Below, one piece after another: positions 35,009 to 54,429 of a DNA stretch of 64,000 nucleotides. Under the pieces are notes generated by a model. It did no database searches and was not told the origin of the DNA. It was given only the letters and a program-made list of their open reading frames with translations. Positions within the stretch are counted from its first letter, which is position 1. Each line of letters starts with the position of its first letter. A program made the position numbers and the translations under genes. Source of the DNA: Candidatus Latescibacterota bacterium (GTDB lineage: Bacteria > Latescibacterota > UBA2968 > GCA-2709665). The DNA is taken from assembly GCA_965219455.1 (NCBI GenBank), contig OZ244744.1:352001-416000 (forward strand), read 5' to 3'.

Positions 35009-36763
35009 ATGTCCGACCAATCGTCCCGCCTCACGATCGACCCCATCACCTTCGAAGTGATGAAGAACGCACTGCTCAACGCCACCGAAGAGATGGCGTA
35101 TACCATACGCCGCACCGCGTACTCCACCAATATCAAGACCCGTGCCGATTTCTCATGCGCCTTCTTCGACGCGGCATTCCGGGTGGTCGCACAATCCTTC
35201 TCCCAGCCGCCGCACCTCTCTTCCATGAAGAACGCGATCCCGAACGCCCTCCGGGAATACGGCGCCGAGAATCTCGCGCCCGGCGACGGCCTCATCCTGA
35301 ACGATCCTCATCGCGGAAGCAGCCACCTCAACGACATCGCGCTGATCGCGCCGGTCTTTGCAGGAGAGACCCGGCTTGGGTACCTCGCCAACATGGCCCA
35401 CCACGTCGACGTGGGGGGCAGCACGCCGAGCAGCCTGGGAGTAAACCGCGAAATCTACCAGGAAGGTATCATCATACCGCCCACGAAAATCATGCGGCGG
35501 GGGGAAATCGACAACGACGTTCTGGGCCTCATTCTGGAGAACGTGCGGGCGCCTCACGAGACCGGAGGCGACCTCCGCGCCCAGATGGGAGCGAACCTCG
35601 TGGGGGCAAGGCGCATCGCGGAACTGATCGACCGCTACGAAATCGCCCAGGTCGAAGCCTTCTTCGACGAACTGCTCGATTACACGGAGCGATGGGCGCG
35701 GCGCGAGATCGCCGCACTGCCGGCCGGTGTGTATAAGGCCGAAGGGTTTCGCGACAACAACGGATTCGACGACGAACCGGTCAAAATCGCCGTTACCGTC
35801 CACATCGGCGACGGAAGCGCCAAACTGGACGTCACCGGGTCCGCGGCGCAGCAGACCGGCCCGTTGAACGCCACCCGCTCCAATACCCTGGCCGCCATTT
35901 CGGTGGTCATCAAGAGCCTGATCGATCCGCGGATCCTGGTCAACGACGGCCTCTACCGATGCCTGGAAGTCATCGGACCGGACAATACCGTGCTCACCGC
36001 AACGTGGCCCGCCGCCGTCGTTGGCGCATGGGAACTGGCGCAACTCACGGCGGAACTTACCCTCACCGCCCTGCACAACGTGTTGCCGGACAGGATTCCC
36101 GCCTGCGGCAAAGGCATTATCTGCAACCTGGGTTTTGCCGGCAACGACCCGCGAAAAAAAGCGTTTTACTGCTACATGGAGACCGTTGGCGGCGGCAATG
36201 GCGCCCGCCCTGCCAAAGATGGCCCCGACGCCATCCAGACGACCATCCACAACACCGAAAACGCGCCGATCGAAGAGGTGGAAATCAACTATCCCATCCG
36301 ATTCGCCCACTACGGCCTCATCACGAACAGCGGCGGCTCCGGCCGGTTTCGCGGCGGCCTCGGGATCAGGAGGGACTTTGAATTTCCCGACTGCGATACC
36401 ACCTTCACCGTCCTCTCGGATGGCACGCGGTTTCCTCCATGGGGGCTCGAGGGTGGTGGCAACGGGCGCCCCGCCCGGTTCGTTCTGGAACCGGAAAGCA
36501 AGGCTGAAAGACTGCCCTCAAAAGTAAGTATCACGGTGCCCAAAGGCGGCCGCGTGAGCGTGCAGACGCCGGGCGGCGGGGGCCACGGCCACCCGCACGA
36601 ACGCGATCCGGATGCCGTCGTGCGGGACGTCCGGGACCGGAAAATAACGCCTCCAGCCGCCCGCGAAACCTACGGTGTCGTCTACAATGCCAGGACCTGG
36701 ACCGTCGACATCGAAGCGACGCAGGGTCTGCGTCGGCGCCTCGAACGGAGTGCGAATTCATGA
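35009..36763 (+). CDS. hyuB: Hydantoinase B / 5-oxoprolinase family subunit
   Basis: 'DFSCAFF', 'NDPHRGSSHLND', 'HHVDVGG', 'TPGGGGHG'. Confidence 0.9.
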   Translation: MSDQSSRLTIDPITFEVMKNALLNATEEMAYTIRRTAYSTNIKTRADFSCAFFDAAFRVVAQSFSQPPHLSSMKNAIPNALREYGAENLAPGDGLILNDPHRGSSHLNDIALIAPVFAGETRLGYLANMAHHVDVGGSTPSSLGVNREIYQEGIIIPPTKIMRRGEIDNDVLGLILENVRAPHETGGDLRAQMGANLVGARRIAELIDRYEIAQVEAFFDELLDYTERWARREIAALPAGVYKAEGFRDNNGFDDEPVKIAVTVHIGDGSAKLDVTGSAAQQTGPLNATRSNTLAAISVVIKSLIDPRILVNDGLYRCLEVIGPDNTVLTATWPAAVVGAWELAQLTAELTLTALHNVLPDRIPACGKGIICNLGFAGNDPRKKAFYCYMETVGGGNGARPAKDGPDAIQTTIHNTENAPIEEVEINYPIRFAHYGLITNSGGSGRFRGGLGIRRDFEFPDCDTTFTVLSDGTRFPPWGLEGGGNGRPARFVLEPESKAERLPSKVSITVPKGGRVSVQTPGGGGHGHPHERDPDAVVRDVRDRKITPPAARETYGVVYNARTWTVDIEATQGLRRRLERSANS

Positions 36764-39000: not shown

Positions 39001-39102
39001 ACTTCGAGAACAATCCCCGCCGGGCATCCCGGCCCCGTGGCCCCAATCCCTCCCCGACATTTTACCCTCCCCCGTACCCCTTTGCAACAAGGAGCCACAA
39101 CA

Positions 39103-41454
39103 ATGAACGTCGCCGTCACCGAAGGCGTCTATTCAAAAGACAGCTATGAACCCAACCTCTGCACCCTTCGTGACGACAAAACGTGCTGGACCGGCTGGGC
39201 GGCCTACGGCGCCGCGGGGTCCAGGACATTTGTCCGGAAATTCGTCGGGGAGAACGCCGGTCCCGTGGAGCCGCTGTCCCCCAACAACACCATGCAGACG
39301 CGCCCCATCTGCATCCCGAACGGAGGTCAGTTGGTGTTTGTATGGCTTGAAAAAACCGGCCGGGAATACGCGTTTTGGACCCGCAAACATGATGGAAATG
39401 CGTTCACCCGGTGCCGGAAATGCCACGTCCTGCCCGCTTCGGCGAAGGTCTGGGAGCCGCAGGCCCTCGTCGACGAAAGCGGCGCCCTCTGGATCTGCTG
39501 GGCCCACTCCGTCAGGGGAGACAGCCGCATCGAAATCGTCAGAAACCTCCCCGATGGCGAGACCGCAACGTATTCGATCGGAAACCGGGTACGCTACAAT
39601 TACCGGCCCAGGATGGTCGAACGGGGGTCGGACGGCGTCTACATCATCTGGGACAGCTACGTCGGCCGCACCTACGACGTCTACGGCTGTGCGGTCGATC
39701 CGGCGGGCCCTCGGAAAGAGGTCAAGATCAGCCGCGGCGACGGGTGGGAAAACAGGCCGACCCTCTGCCGGGACGGCGGCGGTGCACTCTGGGCGGTGTG
39801 GGTGCACGGCGTGGACGTTATGTACAGATGCAGCACCCTCCAACAGAAATACTCATTGCGGGGCGCCCGTCTGGACGGTCGGTCCTGGGAGCCCCTGTCG
39901 GGTGCGGAAGGAGGGGCCGACATTGCGCCGCTCCACTACGGGCTGTTAACCGATTTCCCGAAACCGCCCAACCTGGGGCATATGGGCAGGCAGCTCTTCC
40001 CCATTCTCAAGGGCGCCGAAGCCGACGGCGTCTGGCTTTTCTACGAGGTCAAAGCGGACAGCGAGCAGGGCACACTCACGTCCAGGGGCCGCCTCTTCGG
40101 CCATACCTGCGCCGATGGCGTCTGGTCGGATCCGTACGACGTGGCCGAAGGAAACATCTTCTACGAGCTACCCCACAACGGCTCGGTCGGAACGGCGGTC
40201 CACCTCCTGTCCCAGGACATGATCACCGATGAGCGGTACCTGGAAAGGGTCCAACTCTCCACCGACCTCCCCGTTGTGCCTCCTGAAAAACGCCGCATTC
40301 ACCTGACCGAATGGAAGGAAGTCCGGCTTCCGTTCGAGAAACTTCGAGAGACGGGCCGCCCCCGCAACGAGCTTCCCGGCGGGGAGAGCGAAAAATACCA
40401 CCTCTTCTGGGTGGACCTGCACTGCCACTCGGCAGCCTCCATCGAAATGGAAGGTGAGCCGGATGAGTTGGGCCACTACGCCCGGCACAAAGCACAGATC
40501 GACGGGCTGACCGTTTCCGACAACGACTGCTTCTGGAACCTGCCCACCCGTCAGAACGTGCGCCACCTGAAGGACTACGAGTGGGACTACGTCAAAGGCA
40601 ACGCGATGGTCCTCAACGACCCCGGACAGTTCGCCATGTTTCCCGGCTACGAAATGACCATCACCGACCGGGTGGACTCCGGGCGGGACCACCGATCGGT
40701 GATGTCGGGCGACGACGAAATGGAAATGGACCTGCTTCACTTCAAGTACAAGGAGGCCCATACGAAAGGTGAGCGGCATACCCACAAGGACACCGGGGAG
40801 TGTCTCGCCTGGTTCAAAGAAAAGGGCTACCTCTCCCTCCCGCACCCCCACAACGGGAAATGGAACCTCTACGACACGGACGTCGAGTGGGGCATCGACG
40901 TGTGTGCCGCCTGGATGATCAACATCGACCTTTACGACATCTATTTCAGATACCTCGATGCGGGCCATAAATTCGCCTTCACCGGCAGCGGAGACAGCCA
41001 CCACCGAAACCCCGGCTTGAGCGGCGCGCTCACCGGCGTCTGGGCCGAACGCCTGGACCGTGCCGCCTTTCTGAACGCGATCAAAGCGAGACGCTGTTAC
41101 GCAACGGCCGGGCAGAAAATCCTGATCGAATTCACGATCAACGATCAGATGATGGGTAGCTCGCTGGTTGTCGAGGACGACCCGGTGTTGAAGTGGCGCG
41201 TCGTGGGCGAAGCGGGCCGGGAATACATCCTGCGCGTCCACCGGGACGGGCGTCTGATGCACGACGACCGGTTCATCGGCCAGACCCGGGGAGAGCGAAG
41301 AGAATTCCAATTGCGCCGGTATCGCCCCGGAAAGCACTACTACTACCTCGAAGTCCTGTCACCCGACCCCATCCCCCAATACCCGAACAACGTCGCGCAC
41401 GCCATGGGCGCCAGGGGATGGAGCACACCCATCTGGGTGGAGACATCGGAATGA
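39103..41454 (+). CDS. PHP-like metallohydrolase (DUF3604-like) with N-terminal beta-rich domain
   Basis: 'DLHCHS', 'PGYE', 'PHPH', 'GSGDSHH', 'LTGVWA..L....FL.AIKARRCYAT'; AAGGAG RBS. Confidence 0.75.
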   Translation: MNVAVTEGVYSKDSYEPNLCTLRDDKTCWTGWAAYGAAGSRTFVRKFVGENAGPVEPLSPNNTMQTRPICIPNGGQLVFVWLEKTGREYAFWTRKHDGNAFTRCRKCHVLPASAKVWEPQALVDESGALWICWAHSVRGDSRIEIVRNLPDGETATYSIGNRVRYNYRPRMVERGSDGVYIIWDSYVGRTYDVYGCAVDPAGPRKEVKISRGDGWENRPTLCRDGGGALWAVWVHGVDVMYRCSTLQQKYSLRGARLDGRSWEPLSGAEGGADIAPLHYGLLTDFPKPPNLGHMGRQLFPILKGAEADGVWLFYEVKADSEQGTLTSRGRLFGHTCADGVWSDPYDVAEGNIFYELPHNGSVGTAVHLLSQDMITDERYLERVQLSTDLPVVPPEKRRIHLTEWKEVRLPFEKLRETGRPRNELPGGESEKYHLFWVDLHCHSAASIEMEGEPDELGHYARHKAQIDGLTVSDNDCFWNLPTRQNVRHLKDYEWDYVKGNAMVLNDPGQFAMFPGYEMTITDRVDSGRDHRSVMSGDDEMEMDLLHFKYKEAHTKGERHTHKDTGECLAWFKEKGYLSLPHPHNGKWNLYDTDVEWGIDVCAAWMINIDLYDIYFRYLDAGHKFAFTGSGDSHHRNPGLSGALTGVWAERLDRAAFLNAIKARRCYATAGQKILIEFTINDQMMGSSLVVEDDPVLKWRVVGEAGREYILRVHRDGRLMHDDRFIGQTRGERREFQLRRYRPGKHYYYLEVLSPDPIPQYPNNVAHAMGARGWSTPIWVETSE

Positions 41455-41486: not shown

Positions 41487-41518
41487 AAAAAAAAGGGCGG
41501 CCCCGACCGGCCACCCTT
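41487..41518 (-). terminator. Rho-independent terminator downstream of the Nramp-like gene
   Basis: Minus strand gggtggcc-loop-ggccgccc followed by a T8 tract, between convergent genes. Confidence 0.75.
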
Positions 41519-41544: not shown

Positions 41545-42888
41545 TTAGCGGGTCCAATTCAAATACAGGTTAACTGCGGTAAAGTTGACGATCGCCCAGA
41601 TCGTCAACAGCAATCCAAGTTCCGTCCAGACGGACATCCGTTCCCTGTCCGCAGCGCGCATCGCCAGGTGCACCACACCGTAGGCCATCGGAATCAGCAG
41701 CAGGTTGTTGGCGTTGGCCCCGATCAGCACCAGGGCAAGCGGCGTATCGGGAGTTGCAACGGTCACACAAAGCCACAGAAACGGAAAGCCGATCTGCAAT
41801 GCCCGCAGCAACCGAAGACGGACCTCGTCGCTATCCAGCCTGGCGACGCCCGTCTGCCTCAGAAAATCCACGCTGATGCGACCTGAACTGGCCGTAAACA
41901 CGAGCAGCGTGGAAAACAGCGTGCAGAAAGCGCCGAACATGAACACGTTTTTCGTCCACGGACCGATACTTCGGGTAAAAATCAGCGAAACCTGCTCCAC
42001 GACCTCCATGCCCTGGGGGACCACGTTCAGCTTCTTCAATATCGAGGCCCCAAGCAAATAGTAGGCGCAGGTAATCACCAATGCGATCCCGGTGCATACC
42101 AGCGCGTCGGTCTTCAGCACCCGCATCCAGCCCCGATACCGCGCCCGCCATTCGGGCGTATCCTCCCGGGGCCCCACAAAATCCGCGTATCCCTTCTCCC
42201 GCACCCAGTATGGATACATAAACAACTCCACCGCAGTCGCGCCCACGGACCCCATCACGGCCAGGGCCACAAACGCCCCGTCCGCGGGCAGGGCAAAGCG
42301 AAACCCCGATAGGACCTCCTCGCCCCCCACGGCGTATGGCGTCGCCTGCATCGCCAACACCGACCCGATTACGACAAGGCTGAAGCCCGCGACCAGTATG
42401 GTGATCATTCGCTCCAGATCGGCGTACAAGCCCCTGTAAAGCAGCGCAGAGATGGCCGCAAAAATCAGCACGGCCCACACGTTGTACGGGACGCCGGGAA
42501 AGAGGGTTACCATCAGTCCGGCCACGGACCCAAGGATGCCGATCACGGCAATCATCACCGAAAAATAACCCAGAACGCACAACCATGCCGCCCAGGAGGT
42601 ATTCACCAGCCGTATCCCGGGCACGCGGTCCAGTACCTGTATCGTCGTGCTGTTGTGCAAAACGCACTGGCGCCCGAGTTCAAGTTGAATGAAGAACTTG
42701 ATCACGCAAGCCAGGATCACCCCCCAGAGAAACGCGAAGCCCACCTCCGCCCCCATGCGCGTGGTCACCAGCAACTCGCCTGAGCCGACGACCGAACCCG
42801 ACACAACCACGCCCGGTCCGATATTCCGCAGCAATCCCCCCACGCCCCGCGGCGCCTCTCGAACCGGCCGCTCAGCTGTATTCTCCAT
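41545..42888 (-). CDS. Nramp-family-like transporter
   Basis: 'IGPGVVVSGSVVGSGEL', about 11 TM segments, 'YPYWVREKG'. Confidence 0.82.
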   Translation of the reverse strand: MENTAERPVREAPRGVGGLLRNIGPGVVVSGSVVGSGELLVTTRMGAEVGFAFLWGVILACVIKFFIQLELGRQCVLHNSTTIQVLDRVPGIRLVNTSWAAWLCVLGYFSVMIAVIGILGSVAGLMVTLFPGVPYNVWAVLIFAAISALLYRGLYADLERMITILVAGFSLVVIGSVLAMQATPYAVGGEEVLSGFRFALPADGAFVALAVMGSVGATAVELFMYPYWVREKGYADFVGPREDTPEWRARYRGWMRVLKTDALVCTGIALVITCAYYLLGASILKKLNVVPQGMEVVEQVSLIFTRSIGPWTKNVFMFGAFCTLFSTLLVFTASSGRISVDFLRQTGVARLDSDEVRLRLLRALQIGFPFLWLCVTVATPDTPLALVLIGANANNLLLIPMAYGVVHLAMRAADRERMSVWTELGLLLTIWAIVNFTAVNLYLNWTR

Positions 42889-42983
42889 AAACGAACCCCG
42901 CGACTTTATCCGACACTGCACAGTTTACGATGAGCCGAATGCCGCATGCCCGGACGAGGCCGGCACACACCCCGCGCCTGGCA

Positions 42984-44318
42984 TTAGTAGACCGGCAGAT
43001 AGCGTTCACGCTCCCACTGGTCGACGTGCAGATGGTACTCCGCCCACTCTTCGCGCTTCACCTGCACGTAATAGTCAGCATACTCCGTACCCAGCGCTTC
43101 CCGGACCACATCGTCGGCCGCCAGGTGATCGGCCGCCTCCGCGAGGGTACCCGGCAGCAGGTCGATACCCCGCGCTTGCAACTCGCTCTCGGGCACCTCG
43201 TAGAGATTGCCCTCGTTGCGCTCGCCCGGTTCCATGCGGTTTTCGATGCCATCGAGCCCGGCCGCCAGCATCGCCGCGGCCGTCAGATATGGATTGGCCG
43301 CCCCGTCGACGGCCCGATTCTCGATACGGCCCGCGTCCGGGATTCGAATCATCTGTGTCCGGTTTGATCCGCCATAGGTGATGCAGATCGGCGCCCAGGA
43401 CGCGCCCGAACGCGGTGCGCCCCTCGTGAGGCGCTTGTAGCTGTTCACCAGAGGCGCGGAAACGGCCGAAATCCCCTTTGCATGGTTAAGGATCCCTGCC
43501 ATAAACCAGTAGGCTTCCTTCGACAGGCCGTTTTCATCCGCCTCGTCGAGGAACAGGTTCGTCCTGTTCTCAGGATCCCACAGGCTCAGGTGATAATGCG
43601 CTCCGCTTCCCGTGAGATGAGAAAACGGCTTCGGCATAAAGGTCGCGTGGTATCCGTGCCGCTCCGCGTTTACTTTCACCATCCATCTGAAAAAGGTCTG
43701 TCGATCGGCGGTCGTCAGCGCGTCGGAATAGGTCCAGTTGATCTCGAACTGGCAATTTGCGTCTTCGTGGTCGTTGGCATAGGGTTCCCAACCCAGTTCC
43801 TGCATATATCCGATCAGCGTGGTCATCACATCCAGGTTGCGATGCAAGGTTACGAGATCGTAGCAGGGCTTCTCCAATGTGTCCAGCGGATCGGCCAGCG
43901 CATAATTGTTCCGGTCGTCTTTTTTCAGGAGGATGAACTCCGCTTCCACGCCCAGATTCAACCGATATCCCTTCGCCTCCGCCCGTGCAAGTTGCCGTTG
44001 CAGAATCGTGCGCGGACAGTACCCGAAAGGCTCTCCCTCGACCTGGATATTGCCCGCCACCCACGCCGTATTCTTGCGCCACGGCAATACGGTCATTGAA
44101 TTAAAATCCGGTATATTCATCATATCGGAATCGTGCGGCCCCTGCCCCATATTCCCGGCCGCGAACCCCGCGAATCCCGCGCCATCCGAGGCCATATCGT
44201 CAAGGTGTGTGACGGGCACCACCTTGGCCTTTGGCATCCCGCCCATCTCCACAAACGAACACAGAAAGAAGTCTACTCCATTCCTGGCTACGAATTCTTT
44301 TACCTGGTCCAGCGTCAT
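42984..44318 (-). CDS. gmaS: Gamma-glutamylmethylamide synthetase (GlnT-type glutamate-ammonia ligase)
   Basis: 'KAKVVP..HL.....DGAGFAGFA', 'NDHEDANCQFEINW', 'ATFMPKPF'; context with mgsC and tdm; start revised to 44318. Confidence 0.88.
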   Translation of the reverse strand: MTLDQVKEFVARNGVDFFLCSFVEMGGMPKAKVVPVTHLDDMASDGAGFAGFAAGNMGQGPHDSDMMNIPDFNSMTVLPWRKNTAWVAGNIQVEGEPFGYCPRTILQRQLARAEAKGYRLNLGVEAEFILLKKDDRNNYALADPLDTLEKPCYDLVTLHRNLDVMTTLIGYMQELGWEPYANDHEDANCQFEINWTYSDALTTADRQTFFRWMVKVNAERHGYHATFMPKPFSHLTGSGAHYHLSLWDPENRTNLFLDEADENGLSKEAYWFMAGILNHAKGISAVSAPLVNSYKRLTRGAPRSGASWAPICITYGGSNRTQMIRIPDAGRIENRAVDGAANPYLTAAAMLAAGLDGIENRMEPGERNEGNLYEVPESELQARGIDLLPGTLAEAADHLAADDVVREALGTEYADYYVQVKREEWAEYHLHVDQWERERYLPVY

Positions 44319-44338
44319 CGTCTGATCTCCCTCAAAAA

Positions 44339-44575
44339 TCAAGGTTGGGAATTCTTGCCCTCGCCTTCTATTGCCGTTGCGAGATGACTCGCCTCGGCCA
44401 ACTGATCCAACTCGTCCTGATAATTTGCTCTCTCGTGTCTGATCTGCCAGAATGTGTACGCTATCCACAAGCCAAGACAAAACACGAAGAGAGGAACCTC
44501 GTACCCGACAAAGGGATACATCGGACCCACGTCGGCCGGATTCCCCACCCACGTGTCTATCAAACCCGTGCTCAT
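44339..44575 (-). CDS. Small single-TM membrane protein (78 aa)
   Basis: AAGGAGG RBS; 'DVGPMYPFVGYE' followed by a TM ending 'WQIRHE'. Confidence 0.75.
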   Translation of the reverse strand: MSTGLIDTWVGNPADVGPMYPFVGYEVPLFVFCLGLWIAYTFWQIRHERANYQDELDQLAEASHLATAIEGEGKNSQP

Positions 44576-44722: not shown

Positions 44723-46408
44723 TCAGAACAGACCGACGGTCTGTCCCGCTTCATCGAAATCGATCGCTTCTGCCGAAGGCTTTCGTGGAAGCCCGGGCAT
44801 CGTCATGACGTCACCCGTGAACACCACCACAAAACCGGCCCCTGCAGACACCCGCACGTCGCGGATGGGCACGTCGAAACCCGTGGGTCTTCCCTTCAGC
44901 TTCGGATCGGTCGAGAGCGAATACTGTGTCTTGGCCATGCACACCGGCAGACGCCCGTAACCCTGTTCATCGAGCCTTTTGAACCGGGCTCTCAAGCGCT
45001 TGTCTCCCATAATATCGTCGGCGCCGTAAATTTTCCGGGCTACAATTCGTGCTTTATCCCACAACCGCCGATTATCAGGATAGAGAAGGGTGAAATCGGA
45101 GGTCGCCGTCTCTGCTGCTTCAACCACCGCGCGTGCAAGCGCTTCGGCCCCGACCCCGCCTCTCGCCCAGTGTTCCGATGGCACGATCGGGACTCCCAGG
45201 CAGACGGATTTTTCCTGTATTAACCTTACTTCTTCGGACGTGTCAGACAGAAAGACGTTTACGGCCACGACAACGGGCAAGTCGAAAAGCCGGATATTCT
45301 CGATATGCTTCTTCAGATTCTCCAACCCCTTTTCAGTCGCAGACATGTTGGGCAGTTCGAGCTGCCTGACCGGAATTCCGCCATGGTATTTCAACCCACG
45401 GACGGTGGCCACCAGCACAACCGCGTCGGGCCGGATGCCAGCCTGCCGGCACTTGATGTTCAGGAACTTCTCCGCGCCAAGATCCGCGCCGAATCCGGCC
45501 TCGGTCACCGTATACTCGGAAAGGCGCATCGCCAGCTTGGTCGCAATCACCGAATTGCAGCCGTGCGCGATATTGGCGAACGGGCCCCCGTGAACAATGG
45601 CCGGGTTGTTCTCGAGTGTCTGGACCAGATTCGGCTTTAATGCGTCTCTCAACAGCACGGCCATCGCCCCGTGCACGTTGAGATCTGCTGCCGTGAGCGG
45701 TTCGTTTGCCCGCGTGTACGCCACGATGATCCGACCCAATCGCTCCCGCAGTTCCCCAAGCGATTCTGACAGGCAAAGGATCGCCATCACCTCGGATGCG
45801 ACCGTAATTTCAAACCCCGATTCACGGGGATAGGAATTCCCCGTACCTCCCAGACCGATAACGGTTTCCCGCAGCGCCCGGTCGTTCATGTCCATCACGC
45901 GCTTCCACAGGATGCGCCGGGGATCGATGTCCAGCCTGTTCCGGTGATGAATATGATTGTCAATCGCCGCGGCCAACAGATTGTGGGCGACACCGATAGC
46001 ATGGATATCGCCCGTAAAGTGCAGGTTGATGTCCTCCATCGGCGCAACTTGAGACGCGCCGCCGCCTGCAGCGCCGCCCTTCATGCCGAAACAGGGACCC
46101 AGAGAAGGCTCCCGGAGACAGATGACCGCTGGCTTTCCCAGCCGATTCAGCGCATCACCCAGACCCACGGTTGTGGTTGTCTTGCCCTCTCCGGCAGGCG
46201 TCGGATTGATCGCCGAGACCAGCACCAGCTTGCCCGTGGAATTTCCGGCCACGCTGTCGTAAAAGTCCATCGAAACCTTGGCCTTGTACCTGCCGTAGAT
46301 TTCGAGCTGATCTTCGGGTACCCCCAATGTTTGCGCGACCTCGCCGACATGAAGCAAATCGGCTTGCCTCGCGATTTCGATGTCCGGCAACACGCCATGA
46401 TCGCGCAT
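44723..46408 (-). CDS. fhs: Formate--tetrahydrofolate ligase
   Basis: '[11 protein letters not shown]', '[10 protein letters not shown]', '[14 protein letters not shown]', 'CMAKTQYS'. Confidence 0.97.
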
Positions 46409-46417
46409 AGGTCCTCT

Positions 46418-47812
46418 CTAGTTTCCCCTTTGCGCTTCATCGATTTCCACCTGAACGAGTTCGTTTGCGTCCGCCGTTTCGTTCTCGATCGTCCGGTGAT
46501 CCATACCCGCCAGTTCAATTCGCCTCGGGATGCGGAGAACCCCAAGCTTCTTGAGGATTGCCCCCACGACGTAACACGGCAGAAAACCCAGCACAAAAAA
46601 CATGATGACGGCCCCGAGCGTCTGTCCCCACGGCGTAATCGGCGCGTAAGCGGGATTCGCACCCGGATACCCCCAAAGTACGAATCCTGCGACGATCACC
46701 CCGATGACCCCGGCATATCCATGTACCGCCACGGCGCCCACGGCATCGTCAATTCTGAAACGGCGTTCGATCCAGTTGTGCAACTTGTAGATGCAGAACG
46801 TACCGAATGCGCCGATGAGAAGCGCCTGCATCGGATGGTACAGGTCGTTTCCCGCCGATGCCGTGATGATGCCCGCCAATCCGCCGGAGAAGGTCCAGTA
46901 CGGATCGCCTTTGGACACGAAATACCCCATCATCAATCCGCCCGCAAGGGACATTAGAAAATTAAAGGTGATGGCGCTGAGCGTCGTCGGCGTAAGATAA
47001 ATCGTAGTGGCCGAAAAGAACGACCGGCCGTCCGCGGGATCGATGTCCATAATGGGCACGTTGCAAGCCGCATAGAAGCCCCAGAATCCCGTATAAATCA
47101 AAAACAGCCCGATGATCACCAGCCAGGTGTTGTGCGGCGGGAAATTTCTCGGTGACCCGTCCGGCTTGAACCTGCCGATGCGCGGCCCCAGGTGATAAAG
47201 AATCGCCAGCGCGGACCCGCCGCAGATCGCGTGGATCACGCCGGACGCGTACGCATCGTGATACCCCAGTACCTGCACCATCCAACCGTCTGCGGACCAT
47301 CCCCACGCCGCGTCGACTACCCACGTTACCGATCCCACCAACACCGCAAAAATCCAGAATGCGCTGGATCGGATGCGTTCAATCACCGCGCCCGAAAGAA
47401 TCGATCCCGCCGTCCATGCAAACAACAGAAACGCCGCCCAGAACACGCCGTTCAACCGCGCCCAGAGCGCCGTATCGGCCCCTGTCAACCCCCCTCCATG
47501 CGGCTTTCCTCCCATATGTGTTCCCATCAGCTCATTCCAGGGCGCAGCCCATGCGGCTTCGATAAGCCCACCCGTGATCCCGGGCCCGTTTTGAACCGCG
47601 AAATAGATCCACCACCCGAAAAAATAGAACGTGACGGTTACCAGAGGAATCAGCATCGCGTTCTTCATCAGGGTGTGCATCATATTCTTCCGCCTGGACA
47701 CGCCGACTTCGTACAGACAAAACCCGACATGGATCAGGAACATGAGCACGATGCATATCCAGTAATAGAACTCTGTAAACACAACGGTCAATGCACTGAG
47801 TTCGTTATCCAT
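46418..47812 (-). CDS. amt: Ammonium/methylammonium transporter (Amt family)
   Basis: About 11 TM segments; twin His in 'SGVIH' and 'DDAVGAVAVHG'; 'SGAVIER'; 'LGPRIGRF'. Confidence 0.9.
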   Translation of the reverse strand: MDNELSALTVVFTEFYYWICIVLMFLIHVGFCLYEVGVSRRKNMMHTLMKNAMLIPLVTVTFYFFGWWIYFAVQNGPGITGGLIEAAWAAPWNELMGTHMGGKPHGGGLTGADTALWARLNGVFWAAFLLFAWTAGSILSGAVIERIRSSAFWIFAVLVGSVTWVVDAAWGWSADGWMVQVLGYHDAYASGVIHAICGGSALAILYHLGPRIGRFKPDGSPRNFPPHNTWLVIIGLFLIYTGFWGFYAACNVPIMDIDPADGRSFFSATTIYLTPTTLSAITFNFLMSLAGGLMMGYFVSKGDPYWTFSGGLAGIITASAGNDLYHPMQALLIGAFGTFCIYKLHNWIERRFRIDDAVGAVAVHGYAGVIGVIVAGFVLWGYPGANPAYAPITPWGQTLGAVIMFFVLGFLPCYVVGAILKKLGVLRIPRRIELAGMDHRTIENETADANELVQVEIDEAQRGN

Positions 47813-47866: not shown

Positions 47867-48355
47867 TCAGACTTTGGCCGACCCTTCCGACATCCGGCAA
47901 TACTTCCCGCGGTAAAACAGCAGCGGACGACCCGCGCCCGCATCGCCCGCTACAATCTCACCAACGAAAATGTCGTGGTCCCCGGCTCGCAACACGTCGA
48001 CCAGCAGACACTCCACGTGGCCCAGCGCGTCCACGAAAACCGGCGCACCTGTCCGGTTCGTGGTTGTGGCCACGTTTGAAAAATCCTTGGGACCCGGTCT
48101 GGCAAACTGCGTGGAAAGCGCTTCCTGATCCTCGCTGAGAATATTCAATGCAAAAACCCTGCTTCCACTCAGATGGGCGTGCATCTGCGCCCCTTTGTCC
48201 ACGGCCACCATGACCAGCGGCGGATCCAGCGACAGCGAGGTCACCGCATTGGCCGTCATCCCCCGCGATTCGCCGCCTGCAACCGTCGTCACAACGGTTA
48301 CGCCGGTTGCAAAACAACCCATAATGCGGCGTTGCTCCATCGGGTCGAACGCCAT
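47867..48355 (-). CDS. Flavin reductase (HpaC/RutF-like)
   Basis: 'FATGVTVVT', 'GMTANAVTSLSLDPP', 'GDH', 'PLLFYRG'. Confidence 0.93.
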   Translation of the reverse strand: MAFDPMEQRRIMGCFATGVTVVTTVAGGESRGMTANAVTSLSLDPPLVMVAVDKGAQMHAHLSGSRVFALNILSEDQEALSTQFARPGPKDFSNVATTTNRTGAPVFVDALGHVECLLVDVLRAGDHDIFVGEIVAGDAGAGRPLLFYRGKYCRMSEGSAKV

Positions 48356-48474
48356 TCCAATACCCTTTCAGCGAAAGCGGTGTCGCATACGGCGCCGTCC
48401 GCCGCCGGACATCCGGGCCCCTCGAACGGGGCCGCCGTGATGACCGGTGAAGAGTAGCAGATTCTGCTTTGTGA

Positions 48475-50811
48475 TCAGGAACGCGGCCGGGTTTTCTCCG
48501 GATCGTAAAACGGAAACCGCACCACCCGGGCGGGGATGCGCTTCTGATGACCGTCCAGCCTTCCCACCTCCACTTCCACGCCGATCGCGGCGTACCCGGA
48601 CGCCATGCGGCATAGCGCGATATTCTTGCGCAAAATGGGTGAGCGGCTGCCGCTGGTGATCACGCCCACGCGGCCGCGCCCATCGTAGACGCCGTCGCCG
48701 GTGGCGGCCGGTTCGTTTCCGGACACCTCCAGCCCCACCAGCGCCCGTTGCGGATGCGACCGCCTTCGAATCAGCGCCTCTTTACCTATAAAATCGTCTT
48801 TCTTGCGCTTGAGCGGAACGGTGAAGCCTATACCCGCCTCAAACGGGTCCGTCTGATCGTCAAACTCACAGCCCGCGAAGACCAGACCAGACTCAATCCG
48901 CAGCATGTCCAGGGCTTCCAATCCAAGCGGTGTCAGGCCATACGGCTGTCCCGCCTCCCAAATGGCATCCCAGACCGCAGGCGCATCGTGGGGATGGCAC
49001 CATACCTCATAACCCAGTTCGCCCGTGTAACCCGTCCGGGATACGACAATTGCCGCTCCGCTGCCATCGCCAATTCGACCCACCGTAAATCGGAACCAGC
49101 CCAATTCGTCCAGTGACGGGCGGGACGGAGGCGTCCAGATGATTTCGCGCAGAATTTCCCGGCTCCTGGGGCCCTGAACGGCAAGATTGTGGAGTTGGTC
49201 GGTCGAGTTTCTGACCCATACACGCATCCCCAGGCGACCCGCCTGCTCGCGCAACCACGTACCCCCGTAATCGTCGCCGCAGATCCAGCGGAAATTCTCG
49301 GACCCCAACCGAAACAGCGTGCCGTCGTCCAGCATCCCGCCTGTTTCGTAACACATGGCGGAATAAGTCACCTGCCCCGCCGAAAGCCTGCGAACGTCGC
49401 GTGTGAGCGTGTGCTGCAACAGCGCCTCGGCGTCCGGCCCGAGAACCTCGAACTTGCGAAGCGCGGACAGGTCCATCACCACCGCCGCCTCGCGGCAGGC
49501 GTAATATTCCTCAACGACGCCCTTCCCGGTATAGCTGGCGGGCAGCCAAAAACCGCGATATTCCTCAAAATGGCGAGTCAAGGCAGAGGTGCGTTGGTGG
49601 AAGGCCGTCTCCCTCGTCAACCTCGGCTCGGCGTCTGCTGTCATCCGGTGAGCAATCCCTCTGGAAAACCGGTACCGTTCAGGGTAAACGCGGACCTGAA
49701 TCTCCGTTGGCTCCCAGCCATTGGCCGGATCGATATCGTCCGGGCACGCGGACGACAGGCAGACCAGGTCCGTTAAGGCTTTCAACAGCACGTAATCGCC
49801 CGGACGAGACCATGGCTCATCCATGAAAAGGACGTTATTTCGATCGATTCTCGTATTGTAGAAAAAATTCACCGCGGGCCAGCCACGCCGGCGCTGAATC
49901 GTATACGGGTCCAATGCCACGTTGAAGTTGTCCGTACAGTTGACGTGACCGGGATAACCCATATCCTCGTAATATTTCGCGGTGCAGGCAAGCGCAAACG
50001 TATCGTGCCGCCCTACCGTATCCCGAACGACTTCGACCAGCGGCTGCATATCCTGGTCGTAAAATTTCGAAAACAGGCCCGGACCGGGATAGGCCGCGCC
50101 CATGAGCGTCCTCGTCGTGGTCGCATCCAGCCCCCGCTCGACACCCCGCTGCAATTGCCTGGCGTCGAATGCCAGAAAATCGGAACACTGGCGACCAGCG
50201 ACGTCGATCACCTGGATGAACTCTCCCGCCTTGACCTCGTAGGCAATTGCCGACGCCCTTTCTACCTCCCGATCCAGGCGCATGTCACCCAGGGGCGCGG
50301 GCATAGGGGGGCGTTCGGGCATTTCTACACGGGAACGCCTGACCACGACTTCCAGGTCCGTGGGGGGATCCTGGGCATCGGCCCTCATCGGACCGCCGGG
50401 CGCCGCAATTACGCAAACGGCGTCCCTCTCGACGGCGAAACACGCTTCGGTGCCCGCTTTCGTCTCTCCACCGAAAACCTGCGCCGCCCGTGCGTCCGAC
50501 AGGTCGACGCCCCTCCGCCGCAGGGCAGCATCAGCCGCCTGCGCGCTTTCGTCCCCGCGCCGGAGCGCCGCCGCGAAACCCTCCATCGCGCCGTCCGCCC
50601 GGAGGCCCAGCCTCGACGGATCGTCACCCCCGTCCGGGCCGAATACGCCCAGTTCGCAACGCTGGCGCCCTTCCACGTCCACAACCGCCAGTTGATCGCC
50701 CTGTGACAGCGCCAGGGCGATCGCCCCGCCGCCCGGCACCCGGTAGCGCTCCCTGCCCGGTGACCACCTCAGCAATCCGGTTCCCGTCATTTGGACGTTT
50801 GCAGGCATCAC
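48475..50811 (-). CDS. tdm: Trimethylamine N-oxide demethylase (DUF1989 + GcvT aminomethyltransferase)
   Basis: DUF1989 region with 'QCSDF', 'HDTFALAC', 'GHVNC', 'SSACPDD' (Cys/His/Asp metal ligands as in Tdm) fused to a GcvT domain 'SRTGYTGELGYE'. Confidence 0.87.
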   Translation of the reverse strand: MMPANVQMTGTGLLRWSPGRERYRVPGGGAIALALSQGDQLAVVDVEGRQRCELGVFGPDGGDDPSRLGLRADGAMEGFAAALRRGDESAQAADAALRRRGVDLSDARAAQVFGGETKAGTEACFAVERDAVCVIAAPGGPMRADAQDPPTDLEVVVRRSRVEMPERPPMPAPLGDMRLDREVERASAIAYEVKAGEFIQVIDVAGRQCSDFLAFDARQLQRGVERGLDATTTRTLMGAAYPGPGLFSKFYDQDMQPLVEVVRDTVGRHDTFALACTAKYYEDMGYPGHVNCTDNFNVALDPYTIQRRRGWPAVNFFYNTRIDRNNVLFMDEPWSRPGDYVLLKALTDLVCLSSACPDDIDPANGWEPTEIQVRVYPERYRFSRGIAHRMTADAEPRLTRETAFHQRTSALTRHFEEYRGFWLPASYTGKGVVEEYYACREAAVVMDLSALRKFEVLGPDAEALLQHTLTRDVRRLSAGQVTYSAMCYETGGMLDDGTLFRLGSENFRWICGDDYGGTWLREQAGRLGMRVWVRNSTDQLHNLAVQGPRSREILREIIWTPPSRPSLDELGWFRFTVGRIGDGSGAAIVVSRTGYTGELGYEVWCHPHDAPAVWDAIWEAGQPYGLTPLGLEALDMLRIESGLVFAGCEFDDQTDPFEAGIGFTVPLKRKKDDFIGKEALIRRRSHPQRALVGLEVSGNEPAATGDGVYDGRGRVGVITSGSRSPILRKNIALCRMASGYAAIGVEVEVGRLDGHQKRIPARVVRFPFYDPEKTRPRS

Positions 50812-52202
50812 CCCTCATCGGCTTCGGCCAGAAGCTGCCGCGCGAGTTCCTCCTTTTCCTTACCGTCCATCTTCCTGATTTCGTTCCTCAATAACCGTTC
50901 GTTCACGGACTGGTTCCAATAATCCAGGGAGTCAAAACCCAGCAGCACGCTCTTGCCCACAAACTGGCGGAGGACCTCGTTGGTTGGGCCCATCACCCAA
51001 CCGGCCTTACCGTCACGCAGGTATCGTTCGATCCCCAGATCGGGTTTGTACCCGGTACCGCCACAGGCATGAAGCATCTTGTCGGAGACGTTCGCCACGT
51101 TCTTTGCCGCCGTGAACTTCACCTGCCACATCCAGTGCAGCACCTGTGCCCGGGGCAGGCAGGCGAGGTCCTCGTGGATCGACCAGTCGCACTGGTTCGT
51201 CACATCGTCCATCGCCCTGGCCATCAGGTAGACAAAGGACCGGGAGGTGTTGGTATCGATCACGGCCTCGCCCACGTAATCCTGGATCGTCGGATAGTCC
51301 GCCACCCGCATACCCACGTCCGCGTGCCGTCTGGCGGTCGTGTGTCGCGTGGCGATATCGATCATCCCCAAAGAAATGCCGTTCCAGCAAGCCGATGAGC
51401 ACAACAGGAAAAACGGATCCACCGTTTCGTCGTTCGAATTCGCCCCGTCGCCCACGGGCCCGACCAGCCTGCCCTCCGGCATCGTCACGTTGTCGACCTC
51501 AAGCGTGCCGGACTGGTTCCCGCGCAGCCCCAGGCCATCCCACAGGGACGGCTCGGCTTTCACCTCGTCGGCCATCACGAGAAAACAGGACAGATTCGAA
51601 TAATCCCCCGCGAAATCCGGACTCGTCGTCTGCACGATGTACCAGTCGGCAAAACCCGCGGACGTCGTCCACGACGCCTTTTTCCGCACCTTCCAGCCGT
51701 CCGCCACCCGCTCGGCCCCGGAAGATATCGGATACCAGAAATGAGAACCCGTCTCCGGGTCCGAGTAGGATAACGTGCCTACCAGCACGTCTTCGTCGAG
51801 GCGTTTCATGAGATCCTGGAGGGTCGGGTTGTCGTGCGCCCGGAACAACGCCGCGGCCACGGCCCCGATGTGCATGGTATAACACATCGCCGTACTGGCG
51901 CACCCGTACCGCGCAAGCGTCTCCACCACCATCGCCGTACACGTATGGTTTTCCCCCAACCCTCCCCACTCCCGGGGTACGTTCAATCCGAGCAGGCCCA
52001 GCGAAGCCATCGCCTCGAAGTTTTCCCGCGGAAACACAAGGTTGCGATCGCTCTCTACCGCGTTATCCCGCAGCGTTGTCCGGCAAAGTTCGATCAGTTT
52101 CTCCTGTAGCGCCTCCTGCTCAGGTGTCAGTACCCATTGGGGGTCCCAGTCGTAGTCCATACCCCAGAACGCCTCCGGGCCCCACATCTTTGTTTTGCTC
52201 AT
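50808..52202 (-). CDS. Acyl-CoA dehydrogenase-fold flavoprotein of unknown reaction
   Basis: ACAD motifs 'LSYSDPETGSH', 'KASWTTS', 'LGLRGNQS', 'HACGGTGY', 'ERYLRD'; its stop overlaps the tdm start. Confidence 0.88.
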   Translation of the reverse strand: MSKTKMWGPEAFWGMDYDWDPQWVLTPEQEALQEKLIELCRTTLRDNAVESDRNLVFPRENFEAMASLGLLGLNVPREWGGLGENHTCTAMVVETLARYGCASTAMCYTMHIGAVAAALFRAHDNPTLQDLMKRLDEDVLVGTLSYSDPETGSHFWYPISSGAERVADGWKVRKKASWTTSAGFADWYIVQTTSPDFAGDYSNLSCFLVMADEVKAEPSLWDGLGLRGNQSGTLEVDNVTMPEGRLVGPVGDGANSNDETVDPFFLLCSSACWNGISLGMIDIATRHTTARRHADVGMRVADYPTIQDYVGEAVIDTNTSRSFVYLMARAMDDVTNQCDWSIHEDLACLPRAQVLHWMWQVKFTAAKNVANVSDKMLHACGGTGYKPDLGIERYLRDGKAGWVMGPTNEVLRQFVGKSVLLGFDSLDYWNQSVNERLLRNEIRKMDGKEKEELARQLLAEADEG

Positions 52203-52413
52203 AATGCCTCCCCGGTTTTAGCTGATGCCGGCAATCAGAGTCGAACGCGCCCTGGGAGAAGCACGCCGTCTGAGAATGACATAAGACACGTATTAAAAAG
52301 GAGTCACAACGATTTCCGCCGACAGCGCATCACCGGACTGCTCGCCGGTCGGTCTTTCGCAGGAGCGTTGCCGTGCGGCCGCCCGGCGCACCGCAGCAGA
52401 CTCTTTGCACTGG

Positions 52414-52830
52414 TTACCCGGAGGACCCGGCATCGTCTTCAAGCTTTATTCCGTATGCATCTCTGAGTTCCATAATTGGATGCTTCCCGGACATTTGAAA
52501 CTTGACAAGCAGTTCCCGTGCAATCATGTCACGCTCCTGCTGGTTGCCGGGCAATGCCATATCTTCGGGAACCAGAACCCAGCCATTGATATTCCGGTCG
52601 AATACCGCGGGCTTTCCGTCTTCGTATCCCATATGTACATCTTCCAGCCAGTTCAGGTCACGCCACCCCATCAACTCGATGTATCGCTTCAAGAACGGCG
52701 TCAGGAGCGTATAATCCGGAGGCAGGTTTACGTCGTACCGGTATCCAATGTGCTGTCCGATTTCTTTTTCGCGGTCCGAGTCCAGACCCCTGGACTTCAG
52801 GTAATAGTTCACGTCGTTGGCTTCGTCCAT
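52414..52830 (-). CDS. Conserved-looking hypothetical protein (138 aa)
   Basis: AAGGAG RBS before ATG 52830; natural globular composition; no family recognised. Confidence 0.75.
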   Translation of the reverse strand: MDEANDVNYYLKSRGLDSDREKEIGQHIGYRYDVNLPPDYTLLTPFLKRYIELMGWRDLNWLEDVHMGYEDGKPAVFDRNINGWVLVPEDMALPGNQQERDMIARELLVKFQMSGKHPIMELRDAYGIKLEDDAGSSG

Positions 52831-52917
52831 CGAATTCTCCTTGCCACCGCCGCAACCACCCGGGTGGCGTGCGGCCACGGCCGGACCTGACGATCACTGT
52901 GCGGTCCTTTTCGGAGG

Positions 52918-54288
52918 TCAGTACCTGTTCATTTCGGGATGTCCGACGGTATAGCGGGTGCCTGCCAGCGGCACCTCCGCCATGGCGGATGCCTCCATTG
53001 TGAGCGCGGCAAGATCCTCCGGCTCCAGGGAATGCACATCCGTCTTTCCGCAAGCCCTGGCGAACATCTGACATTCGATGGCCAGGGTATGCAGGAAGTT
53101 GAATACCCGTTCGGCCGCCTCGTCCGGGTCCAGACGGCTTCGCAGCACCGGATCCTGAGTGGCCACGCCCACCGGACACAGTCCGGTGTGGCAGTGATAG
53201 CAGGAACCCGCCGGTACGCCGACCGTGCCCTCGTAATCCGCCTCGGGAATATCCTTGTTGCAATTCAGCGCCACCATCGCCGCCGTGCCGATGGCCACCG
53301 CGTCGGCGCCGAGCGCCAGCGCCTTGGCAAGGTCGGCTCCGTTGCGAATCCCGCCTGCATAGACGAGCGTAATCTCCCCGGTCTTGCCCACGTCGTCCAG
53401 GGCCTTTCTGGCCTGCCTGATGGCCGCAATGCCCGGTACGCCCGTCTCCTCGGTGGCCAGGTGGGGACCCGCGCCCGTTGACCCCTCCATTCCGTCCATA
53501 TAAATGCTGTCGGGGCCCGTCTTCGCCGCCATCCGCACATCGTCGTAAACCCGAGCCGCGCCAAGTTTCAACTGAATGGGAATCTGCCAGTTGGTCGCCT
53601 CGCGAATCTCCTCGATCTTCAACGCCAGATCGTCGGGCCCCAGCCAGTCCGGGTGCCGCGCCGGCGAACGCTGATCGATCCCCGCCGGCAACGAACGCAT
53701 CTCGGCCACCTGGTCGGTCACCTTCTGGCCCATCAGATGTCCGCCAAGCCCTACCTTGCATCCCTGACCGATAAAAAACTCCACGCCGTCGGCGAGACGC
53801 ATATGGTGTGGATTGAACCCGTAGCGTGACTGAATGCACTGGTACAGCCATTTCTCCGAATACCGGCGTTCGTCGGGCAGCATGCCGCCTTCTCCGGAAC
53901 ATGTCGCCGTACCCGCCATCGTGGCCCCTCTCGCCAGCGCCACCTTCGCCTCGTAGGACAGCGCCCCGAAGCTCATCCCCGTTATGTAGACAGGAATATC
54001 CAGCACCAGCGGCCGCCTGGCCATAGGCCCCAGGACCGTCCGGGTTTCACATTTTTCACGGTACCCCTCGATCACGAACCGGGTGAGCGTGCCCGGCAGA
54101 AACGTCAGGTCGTCCCACGATGGAATCTGCTTGAAGAGCGCCATACCGCGCATACGGTACCGACCCAGATTCGCCTTGATGTGTATATCGTCGATCACAT
54201 GGGGCGGAAACATGAAATTCCTGCCCAGAACCTGCGGGTTCCGGTCGGACCTTCCATTGTCGTGGCCATTATCTCTACGCGCTTCCAT
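52918..54288 (-). CDS. mgsC: N-methylglutamate synthase FMN/Fe-S subunit (MgsC/GlxD)
   Basis: 'TRFVIEGYREKC', 'GMSFGALS', 'GQGCKVGLGGHL', 'RSPARHPDW', 'CYHCHTGLCPVG'. Confidence 0.88.
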   Translation of the reverse strand: MEARRDNGHDNGRSDRNPQVLGRNFMFPPHVIDDIHIKANLGRYRMRGMALFKQIPSWDDLTFLPGTLTRFVIEGYREKCETRTVLGPMARRPLVLDIPVYITGMSFGALSYEAKVALARGATMAGTATCSGEGGMLPDERRYSEKWLYQCIQSRYGFNPHHMRLADGVEFFIGQGCKVGLGGHLMGQKVTDQVAEMRSLPAGIDQRSPARHPDWLGPDDLALKIEEIREATNWQIPIQLKLGAARVYDDVRMAAKTGPDSIYMDGMEGSTGAGPHLATEETGVPGIAAIRQARKALDDVGKTGEITLVYAGGIRNGADLAKALALGADAVAIGTAAMVALNCNKDIPEADYEGTVGVPAGSCYHCHTGLCPVGVATQDPVLRSRLDPDEAAERVFNFLHTLAIECQMFARACGKTDVHSLEPEDLAALTMEASAMAEVPLAGTRYTVGHPEMNRY

Positions 54289-54401
54289 AAGACAATACTC
54301 CCGGCTTCGCATCTGGGGGATGACGGCCTTGTCCCCGTCGATTCGCCGATTACGGGGCGCACTAAAGCGTTTCGTTGTATTTGCGGACGGGAAATTGCTA
54401 G

Positions 54402-54429
54402 ATGATACGGCAAGGGCGCGTCATGTCAA
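54402..54429 (-). promoter_or_regulatory. Sigma70-type promoter of the methylated-amine cluster
   Basis: Minus strand TTGACA-16 nt-TATCAT, about 110 nt upstream of mgsC. Confidence 0.6.

Follow-up and report, generated by a model that had tools for sequence, protein, structure and literature searches.

Trimethylamine (TMA), trimethylamine N-oxide (TMAO) and dimethylamine (DMA) are major currencies of organic nitrogen and carbon in seawater, sediments, soils and animal hosts as well as aerosol precursors, and field surveys count the bacteria that oxidise TMA by means of the gene tmm. Its product, Tmm (NCBIfam family NF058570), is a single polypeptide of the flavin-containing monooxygenase (FMO) type that binds both FAD and NADPH and works through flavin hydroperoxide chemistry. 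DMA is oxidised in the same pathway by DmmABC(D)/HODM (PF11927, PF22290), in which a haem oxygenase of the PAS type works with a reductase of the FNR/2Fe-2S kind and a subunit resembling GcvT. Flavin-dependent N-oxygenases with the fold of acyl-CoA dehydrogenases (ACADs) are an established kind of enzyme, nitrososynthases and isobutylamine N-hydroxylase being examples that N-oxygenate amines. Here we analyse a methylated-amine operon of a Candidatus Latescibacterota bacterium in which a gene for an ACAD-fold protein stands beside the genes for TMAO demethylase (tdm) and for a flavin reductase. The window, by which we mean the whole stretch of 64,000 nucleotides that was analysed, covers positions 352001-416000 of the single 5.84-Mb contig of this genome, for which completeness is put at 100% and contamination at 8.49%. 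We propose that the ACAD-fold protein and the reductase may form a two-component flavin monooxygenase that replaces Tmm and converts TMA into TMAO, a reading favoured over its alternatives and to which we give a probability of about one half.

The proposed pair resembles Tmm in its reaction (TMA + O2 + NAD(P)H to TMAO) and in its place beside tdm, but it consists of an ACAD-fold oxygenase and a separate PF01613 reductase, and the ACAD-like protein has neither the fold of Tmm nor any sequence relation to it. With the group D monooxygenases (the nitrososynthases ORF36, KijD3 and DnmZ, isobutylamine N-hydroxylase, DszC, HsaA and C2-HpaH) it shares an ACAD fold devoid of the catalytic glutamate and a separate HpaC-like flavin reductase encoded nearby; the resemblance is however distant (NCBIfam scores of 55.8 bits for HsaA, 51 for DszC and 42.1 for the HPAH oxygenase) and the substrate proposed here is a three-carbon amine of primary catabolism rather than an intermediate of secondary metabolism. 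Judged from such scores, the family is not closely related to any characterised group D member. The DmmABC(D)/HODM system belongs to the same pathway and the same gene clusters, lying side by side with the pair in Xanthobacter flavus, but has no homology to it. Acyl-CoA dehydrogenases such as Tfu_1647 of Thermobifida fusca (PDB 7w0j/8i4p) have the same fold and give the best sequence matches, whereas the ACAD-like protein has Gly405 in place of the glutamate, a reductase as partner or fused domain, and no electron transfer flavoprotein (ETF) or beta-oxidation context. The best NCBIfam match is Rv1679/FadE16 (NF049984), a family for which we know of no assigned function, with 219.7 bits over residues 43-419, far under the cut-off of 600 bits.

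Gene order and genomic setting

The operon comprises nine genes arranged head to tail on the minus strand, including the ACAD-like gene, tdm and the flavin reductase gene (Table 1). The first-pass annotation of this DNA had described these three genes in this order, with the stop codon of the ACAD-like gene running over the start of tdm, a motif 'VMGPT' in place of the 'IYEGT' of dehydrogenases, no fatty-acid, CoA or ETF genes nearby, and neither Tmm nor Dmm. Because the layout, the Tdm threshold, the analysis of the ACAD-like protein and the scans of the window all agree, this description holds in all its points. The last 4 nt of the ACAD-like gene, stop codon included, are also the first of tdm (50808-50811), which starts with GTG. 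Tdm scores 1252.4 bits on NF053776 (cut-off 1100) and presents the PF09347, PF01571 and PF08669 architecture, and the best NCBIfam matches of the reductase, all under their cut-offs, are reductase components of two-component monooxygenases. No gene for ETF, enoyl-CoA hydratase, thiolase or acyl-CoA synthetase was found among the 39 window open reading frames (ORFs) scanned with Pfam, and it is on these ORFs that the ETF context was judged, no ETF search of the whole genome having been made. The absence of Tmm and Dmm extends to the whole genome: the 5.84-Mb contig gave no match to PF00743 or NF058570 for Tmm, and none to PF11927 for the alpha subunit of the haem enzyme Dmm/HODM, in a search that does detect PF11927 in Xanthobacter and other genomes.

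Sequence and fold of the ACAD-like protein

The ACAD-like protein matches the three Pfam domains of the fold (Acyl-CoA_dh_N, 65.6 bits; Acyl-CoA_dh_1, 40.5; Acyl-CoA_dh_M, 32.5) and reaches the cut-off of none of 17 NCBIfam families. In phmmer alignments with solved ACADs the motif 'VMGPT' (residues 403-407) lies opposite 'IYEGT', with Gly405 at the position of the catalytic glutamate. A methionine, a glycine or alanine and a proline, M-(G/A)-P, are kept in all 24 sequences of the family alignment, including remote relatives at 26-35% identity. In the column that we take to correspond to the alternative position of the glutamate in IVD-type enzymes, examination of the alignment by eye revealed no acidic residue in any sequence. 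Because the glutamate is replaced by Gly405, M-(G/A)-P is kept and no NCBIfam ACAD equivalog is reached, the protein is, on the evidence of its sequence, no functional ACAD of the common type. The features of group D that can be tested here are all present, namely membership of the ACAD fold, loss of the catalytic glutamate and a separate reductase partner; those of an acyl-CoA dehydrogenase (EC 1.3.8.-), that is the catalytic glutamate, a score above a curated family threshold and an ETF or beta-oxidation context, are all missing from what was scanned. The AlphaFold (AF2) model of the protein (pLDDT 86.6) superimposes in Foldseek on ACAD-fold structures with TM-scores of 0.87-0.90, normalised to the target, including 5z8t, an entry titled flavin-containing monooxygenase. 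The fold comparison was dropped as a means of telling dehydrogenases from monooxygenases, ACADs and 5z8t scoring alike.

The protein belongs to a compact family. Among 1.84 billion cluster representatives few full-length relatives turned up, at 38-74% identity, under which the scores fall to those of generic ACADs (193 bits or less). Sequences within the family are very strongly conserved, the best 120 of 1553 matches being 75-94% identical. Its members carry in public records the names 'acyl-CoA dehydrogenase' or 'AidB-like' and no others, and its own parts are an N-terminal extension (residues 1-24), a C-terminal extension (about 425-464) and an insertion near 335-350. Two relatives, both representatives of 50% clusters, are fusions in which the ACAD-like domain is followed by C-terminal FAD_binding_6 and NAD_binding_1 domains: P0131 (770 aa, 53% identity) and P0143 (882 aa, 38%). 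Fusion with an NAD(P)H-dependent reductase is what is expected of an oxygenase that consumes reducing power, and not of a dehydrogenase that donates electrons to ETF.

The fused reductase module is similar to cytochrome b5 reductase, and a further relative, P0138 (562 aa), resembles P0131 minus internal segments, as in a mis-spliced gene model. This would point to a eukaryotic origin of P0138, and a single-chain eukaryotic version, perhaps algal or protist, may exist. A metagenome scan for the genomic context of P0131 gave 66 pattern matches and no confirmed relative.

Conservation of the gene neighbourhood

At least 255 GTDB species genomes encode a relative of the ACAD-like protein (255 of 273 pattern matches, one genome per species). 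They belong to Latescibacterota, Acidobacteriota, Alpha- and Gammaproteobacteria, Verrucomicrobiota and cyanobacteria, and cultured carriers include Xanthobacter flavus, Dongia deserti, Virgifigura deserti and Hypericibacter adhaerens. The loci analysed were the best 80, at 72-98% identity to the ACAD-like protein, which stem from Latescibacterota, Acidobacteriota, numerous Alphaproteobacteria (among them Dongiaceae, Dongia deserti, X. flavus, X. oligotrophicus and V. deserti), Candidatus Udaeobacter, cyanobacteria and one gammaproteobacterium. Neighbours were detected by tblastn with the window proteins at a query coverage of 50% or more, and counted in those 46 loci where the sequence extends 9 kb or more on both sides. 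In 38 of these 46 the ACAD-like gene has tdm no more than 10 kb away, in 19 of them within 500 bp, and a PF01613 flavin-reductase homologue is found within 10 kb in 31. Both neighbours are found together in 29/46 loci and neither in six (L025, L034, L046, L057, L066 and L070), one of which, L066, has tdm about 14 kb away, beyond the fetched flank.

Two clusters illustrate the setting of the pair. In an acidobacteriotal locus (L028) the entire pathway is encoded in a single string of genes, which runs from mgd (sarcosine-oxidase-like) through a glutamine-synthetase-like (GS-like) gene and the GATase-, GXGXG- and glutamate-synthase-type mgs genes to the 138-aa protein gene, the ACAD-like gene, tdm, a DAO-family gene and an Amt transporter gene. 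In X. flavus and X. oligotrophicus the cluster contains a GcvT/DmmD-like gene, the ACAD-like gene, the reductase gene, tdm, a permease gene, a DmmA-like_N/2Fe-2S reductase gene and the gene for HODM alpha, and the genome has no Tmm. Since Xanthobacter has the ACAD-like protein, the reductase, Tdm and HODM, the TMA step is therefore the only one missing there.

Some genomes have two copies of the ACAD-like gene, for example G014, in which L025 and L034 belong to a genome with three tdm matches, and G389, where the copies show 77% and 61% identity; such paralogues might have divided the substrates between them, for instance TMA and DMA. In Virgifigura deserti, genes of the zinc alcohol dehydrogenase and esterase D types lie near the ACAD/tmm/tdm cluster (L049, 3792-5901), an arrangement that fits the pattern of glutathione-dependent formaldehyde oxidation and is consistent with release of formaldehyde by the pathway.

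Co-occurrence with Tmm, Tdm and HODM

Gene content was compared in 51 carrier genomes, the present one and 50 reached through the loci, with Tmm called on NF058570 above its cut-off (675 bits or more) and HODM on PF11927. Of the 51 carriers, 50 have a tdm gene at E<=1e-100 and 45 of these pass the NF053776 cut-off, while Tmm is present in three (and in none of five further carriers) and HODM alpha in five. Because neither Tmm nor HODM is found in nine carriers with records titled 'chromosome: 1', nor in the present genome, these absences are not gaps of assembly.

The relation between the ACAD-like gene and tmm was examined in random samples of genomes. Among 401 Alphaproteobacteria 33 were tdm-positive, 15 of them with Tmm, nine with the ACAD-like gene, none with both and nine with neither, this last group consisting mostly of genomes of 1.4-2.1 Mb; among 400 scored Gammaproteobacteria 21 were tdm-positive, 16 with Tmm, two with the ACAD-like gene and none with both. 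Pooling the samples and removing the two seed genomes left 52 tdm-positive genomes, none with both genes, 31 with Tmm only, nine with the ACAD-like gene only and 12 with neither (one-sided Fisher test for exclusion, P = 8e-5, uncorrected for shared ancestry). Where tmm is present it may adjoin tdm, as in G391, G440 and G027. Within the tdm-positive Alphaproteobacteria, Tmm was found in 0/9 ACAD carriers against 15/24 of the others, and HODM in 2/9 against 8/24 (P = 0.69). This is what non-orthologous displacement classically looks like, and it would indicate displacement of Tmm and not of Dmm.

These results bear on the proposal of the first-pass annotation that the pair fills a missing step of methylamine metabolism, either N-oxygenation of TMA or oxidation of DMA. 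The proposal gains comparative support from the constancy of tdm among carriers, the frequency of the reductase at the loci and the exclusion of Tmm, and most of the homologues at the full-flank loci do have tdm within 10 kb. As to the step, the expected anti-correlation appeared with tmm and was weak with dmm, a phyletic pattern that favours N-oxygenation of TMA over DMA oxidation.

The call of Tmm depends on the profile used. The FMO-like family PF00743 was tried as a proxy for Tmm and dropped for NF058570, as it can misassign in both directions. Six or seven genomes have a long continuous PF00743 match, and the one such protein tested (L085) scored 99.8 bits on NF058570 and is not Tmm; true Tmm proteins score 850-861 bits on NF058570 and show a PF00743 match split in two.

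Proposed function and alternatives

In the mechanism that we propose, free FAD or FMN would be reduced by the reductase at the expense of NAD(P)H, the reduced flavin would be bound by the ACAD-fold protein and react with O2 to give a flavin hydroperoxide, and this would transfer one oxygen atom to the nitrogen of TMA, yielding TMAO. The translationally coupled Tdm would then convert TMAO into DMA and methylene-tetrahydrofolate, and the one-carbon (C1) unit and methylamine would be taken by formate-tetrahydrofolate ligase, the GmaS-type synthetase, the MgsC-like subunit and the Amt carrier. The pair would thus be a non-orthologous substitute for the single-component FMO-type Tmm. Substrate and product are inferred here, as is the use of O2 and of reduced flavin; the PDB matches of the ACAD-like protein include entries for nitrososynthase, DnmZ and enzymes of the KijD3 type (E 1e-9 to 1e-11). 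Put more broadly, we consider it probable that the pair acts in the TMA/TMAO/DMA pathway as an oxygenase dependent on a reductase, rather than as an acyl-CoA dehydrogenase.

Several points weigh against N-oxygenation of TMA. By sequence the nearest solved structures in the PDB are those of ordinary ACADs, with E 1e-31 and about 25% identity; these stand nearer to the ACAD-like protein than the known ACAD-fold monooxygenases do, in sequence as in fold. In three genomes, those of Virgifigura deserti (G027), G039 and G047, Tmm, tdm and the ACAD-like gene lie within 7-18 kb of one another, tmm being 207 bp from the ACAD-like gene in G047, and all three are without HODM; this clustering would be redundancy if the ACAD-like protein oxidises TMA and complementarity if it oxidises DMA, and looks more like two jobs. 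An enzyme for TMA only would moreover leave DMA unprocessed in the 46 of 51 carriers that have no HODM though methylamine genes adjoin tdm, and carriers could just import TMAO without oxidising TMA. The co-occurrence counts are uncorrected for phylogeny, and many of the sampled genomes are incomplete metagenome-assembled genomes, in which some Tmm-negative calls may be false.

Some of these points speak for a pair that oxidises DMA to methylamine and formaldehyde, directly or via N-hydroxylation, in place of DmmABC/HODM and with TMAO imported. The carriers without HODM have tdm and the methylamine genes of the N-methylglutamate pathway in one operon or cluster, which calls for a DMA step; the ACAD-like protein would complete the pathway in the three genomes where its gene clusters with tmm and tdm and HODM is absent; and HODM is rarer in carriers (5/51) than in ACAD-negative tdm-positive Alphaproteobacteria (8/24; Fisher P = 0.02, the groups being unmatched). 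We nevertheless regard DMA oxidation as unlikely. In the matched Alphaproteobacteria HODM is not depleted and it is Tmm that is excluded, a substitute for Dmm should meet Tmm at the background rate and does not, and the Xanthobacter cluster holds HODM and the ACAD-like gene together.

Another possibility is that the oxygenase N-oxygenates both TMA and DMA and that Tdm demethylates both products, leading from TMA to methylamine with neither Tmm nor Dmm. This would account for the carriers that have no Tmm (48/51) and no HODM (46/51) and still keep tdm (50/51) and the methylamine genes; exceptions occur in both directions, with Tmm alone or HODM alone, as partial redundancy would have it, and the translational coupling of the ACAD-like gene and tdm suits a tight functional pair. 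It demands an extra assumption on Tdm that simpler readings do not need, our literature search found no paper linking Tdm to N,N-dimethylhydroxylamine, and TMAO is the only Tdm substrate described in the passages of PMC13619132 consulted, so that this possibility too seems doubtful.

The pair may also act on another small amine or N-oxide, such as a tertiary amine whose N-oxide is cleaved by Tdm, or have a protective or side role. The identity of the substrate is wholly inferred and the genes found between the ACAD-like gene and tdm vary by locus (SHMT-like, amidase, methyltransferase and adenosine deaminase genes), which leaves room for such a role; we think it improbable, given that Tdm of carriers scores on NF053776 as Tdm of Tmm-positive genomes does (1107-1281 against 1083-1283 bits) and that the exclusion is with Tmm specifically. 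Least of all do we expect an ordinary acyl-CoA dehydrogenase beside tdm by chance, since, for all that ACADs are the best sequence and fold matches and that public records use this name, the catalytic glutamate is missing, no ACAD equivalog cut-off is reached, the scanned window ORFs hold no ETF or beta-oxidation gene, the synteny with tdm and a flavin reductase crosses phyla, and fusions with a reductase exist.

If N-oxygenation of TMA is indeed the function of the pair, surveys based on tmm miss a whole set of TMA oxidisers; the GTDB species genomes that encode a relative, at least 255 of those scanned, include sponge-associated and soil lineages. It would also exemplify clearly how a central C1 and nitrogen pathway can undergo non-orthologous displacement, give a function to a family annotated as 'acyl-CoA dehydrogenase' or 'AidB-like', and add an amine N-oxygenase for a very small substrate to the ACAD-fold monooxygenases. 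The novelty lies in a known pathway step apparently performed by a different known type of flavoenzyme, from a widespread family without assigned function, and no ACAD-type or two-component TMA or DMA oxygenase was described in the open full-text literature that we searched, supplementary files and subscription journals being outside its scope. Should the enzyme handle DMA as well, this would be relevant to the DMA bottleneck of marine bacteria reported in PMC5520151. Were TMA and DMA both N-oxygenated and both products demethylated by Tdm, a two-enzyme cycle from TMA to methylamine would explain the many tdm-positive bacteria with neither Tmm nor Dmm and provide a route around that bottleneck.

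Accessory genes and other features of the operon

The MgsC-like gene of the operon is 89% identical to the gene that in L028 follows the GATase-type and GXGXG-type genes, and its mgsA- and mgsB-like partners are found at about 4.856 Mb of the same genome. The genome has two paralogous N-methylglutamate-synthase-like sets, of which one, a complete A'B'C' set, lies beside mgdABCD (L103, G000:C1:4843000-4861000). The second set is split, its GS-like, A and B genes being located at about 4.856 Mb and C with the 138-aa protein gene 4.45 Mb away beside the ACAD-like gene and tdm; in L028 the second mgs-like set is contiguous with ACAD-tdm. We considered this second set of GS-like, MgsA-, MgsB- and MgsC-like genes as a dedicated DMA route and dropped the idea, as the 138-aa protein and MgsC-like subunit that mark it are general to methylamine users.

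The 138-aa protein has no Pfam or NCBIfam match, and the ESM Atlas gave no usable one. It is encoded in 64/80 tdm-positive genomes (E<=1e-10, 67-92% identity), including Tmm-positive genomes and genomes of 1.3-1.4 Mb, and its gene is always directly downstream of the MgsC-like gene. It is not specific to the pair, and we rejected it as a third oxygenase component, seeing that it follows the MgsC-like gene and is present with or without the ACAD-like protein or Tmm. Possibly N-methylglutamate synthase has in it an accessory protein or a fourth subunit that has gone unrecognised.

In Acidobacteriota and at some latescibacterotal loci a DAO-family FAD oxidoreductase (446-460 aa, with a weak SoxB-like match) is encoded right after tdm. 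The homologue in the present genome (69% identical) stands in an unrelated setting, with genes for a thiamine pyrophosphate (TPP) enzyme, a RidA-like protein and an ABC transporter. The DAO-family enzyme is a candidate for the missing DMA oxidation step.

Table 1. Coordinates of the operon genes and flanking sites in the window, and of genes discussed at other loci (locus handle given before the coordinates).
Feature	Coordinates	Strand	Remarks
Promoter-like site TTGACA-16-TATCAT	54402..54429	-	11/12 consensus match, about 90 nt 5' of the operon's first gene
FMN-binding glutamate-synthase-domain protein (MgsC-like subunit of N-methylglutamate synthase)	52918..54312	-	PF01645, 301.2 bits
Conserved 138-aa protein, no known family	52414..52830 (from ATG)	-	154 aa from upstream GTG
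ACAD-fold protein, 464 aa; proposed oxygenase component	50808..52202	-	Gly405 for catalytic Glu
Tdm, trimethylamine N-oxide demethylase, 778 aa	48475..50811	-	GTG start; DUF1989 and GcvT domains
HpaC/HsaB-type NAD(P)H:flavin reductase, 162 aa; proposed reductase component	47867..48355	-	PF01613, 148.9 bits
Amt-family transporter, candidate methylated-amine/ammonium carrier	46418..47812	-	PF00909, 196.8 bits; under NCBIfam cut-offs
Formate-tetrahydrofolate ligase (C1 oxidation branch)	44723..46408	-	PF01268, 865 bits; NF010030, 866 bits, cut-off 652
Type III glutamine-synthetase-like enzyme (GmaS-type)	42984..44552	-	TIGR03105, 586.8 bits, cut-off 469.6
Nramp-like membrane transporter, operon's last gene	41545..42921	-	NF037982, 105.2 bits, cut-off 50
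Terminator-like hairpin, 10 pairs then T run	41493..41518	-	27 nt after last gene; pattern match only
DAO-family oxidoreductase	L028 13749-15089		
DAO-family oxidoreductase	L016 14191-15573		
DAO-family oxidoreductase, homologue in the present genome	L104 2414-3751		
PF00743-matching protein (see the choice of Tmm profile)	L085 1417-2874		
PF00743-matching protein (see the choice of Tmm profile)	L049 12925-14373	-	
PF00743-matching protein (see the choice of Tmm profile)	L093 844-2184	-	

The nine genes lie between the promoter-like and the terminator-like site, which is suggestive only; the promoter scan found six sites in the region against a mean of 5.4 in shuffled sequence, that is, not above expectation. 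In the ORF of the GmaS-type synthetase the TIGR03105 match begins at residue 85, and translation probably starts further downstream than at the listed GTG.

RNA libraries from three studies, one of them labelled as a sponge metatranscriptome, contain contigs that cover the operon. Run X15 gave a contig of 6761 nt over 48391-54329 at about 95% identity and run X18 one of 6857 nt over 48102-54317, each spanning in one piece the MgsC-like gene, the 138-aa protein gene, the ACAD-like gene and tdm. Runs X16 and X20, from the sponge metatranscriptome, gave short contigs with at most six differences each on the reductase, tdm, ACAD-like, 138-aa protein and MgsC-like genes. These contigs are a weak hint that the operon is transcribed, DNA being possibly present in such libraries and the comparison having no silent-region control; stretches left uncovered carry no information. 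Just past the end of the operon, a hydantoinase B/A pair of the oxoprolinase type is encoded at 35009-38865 (+) of the window, and a protein of 805 aa that matches DUF3604 weakly at 39037-41454 (+).

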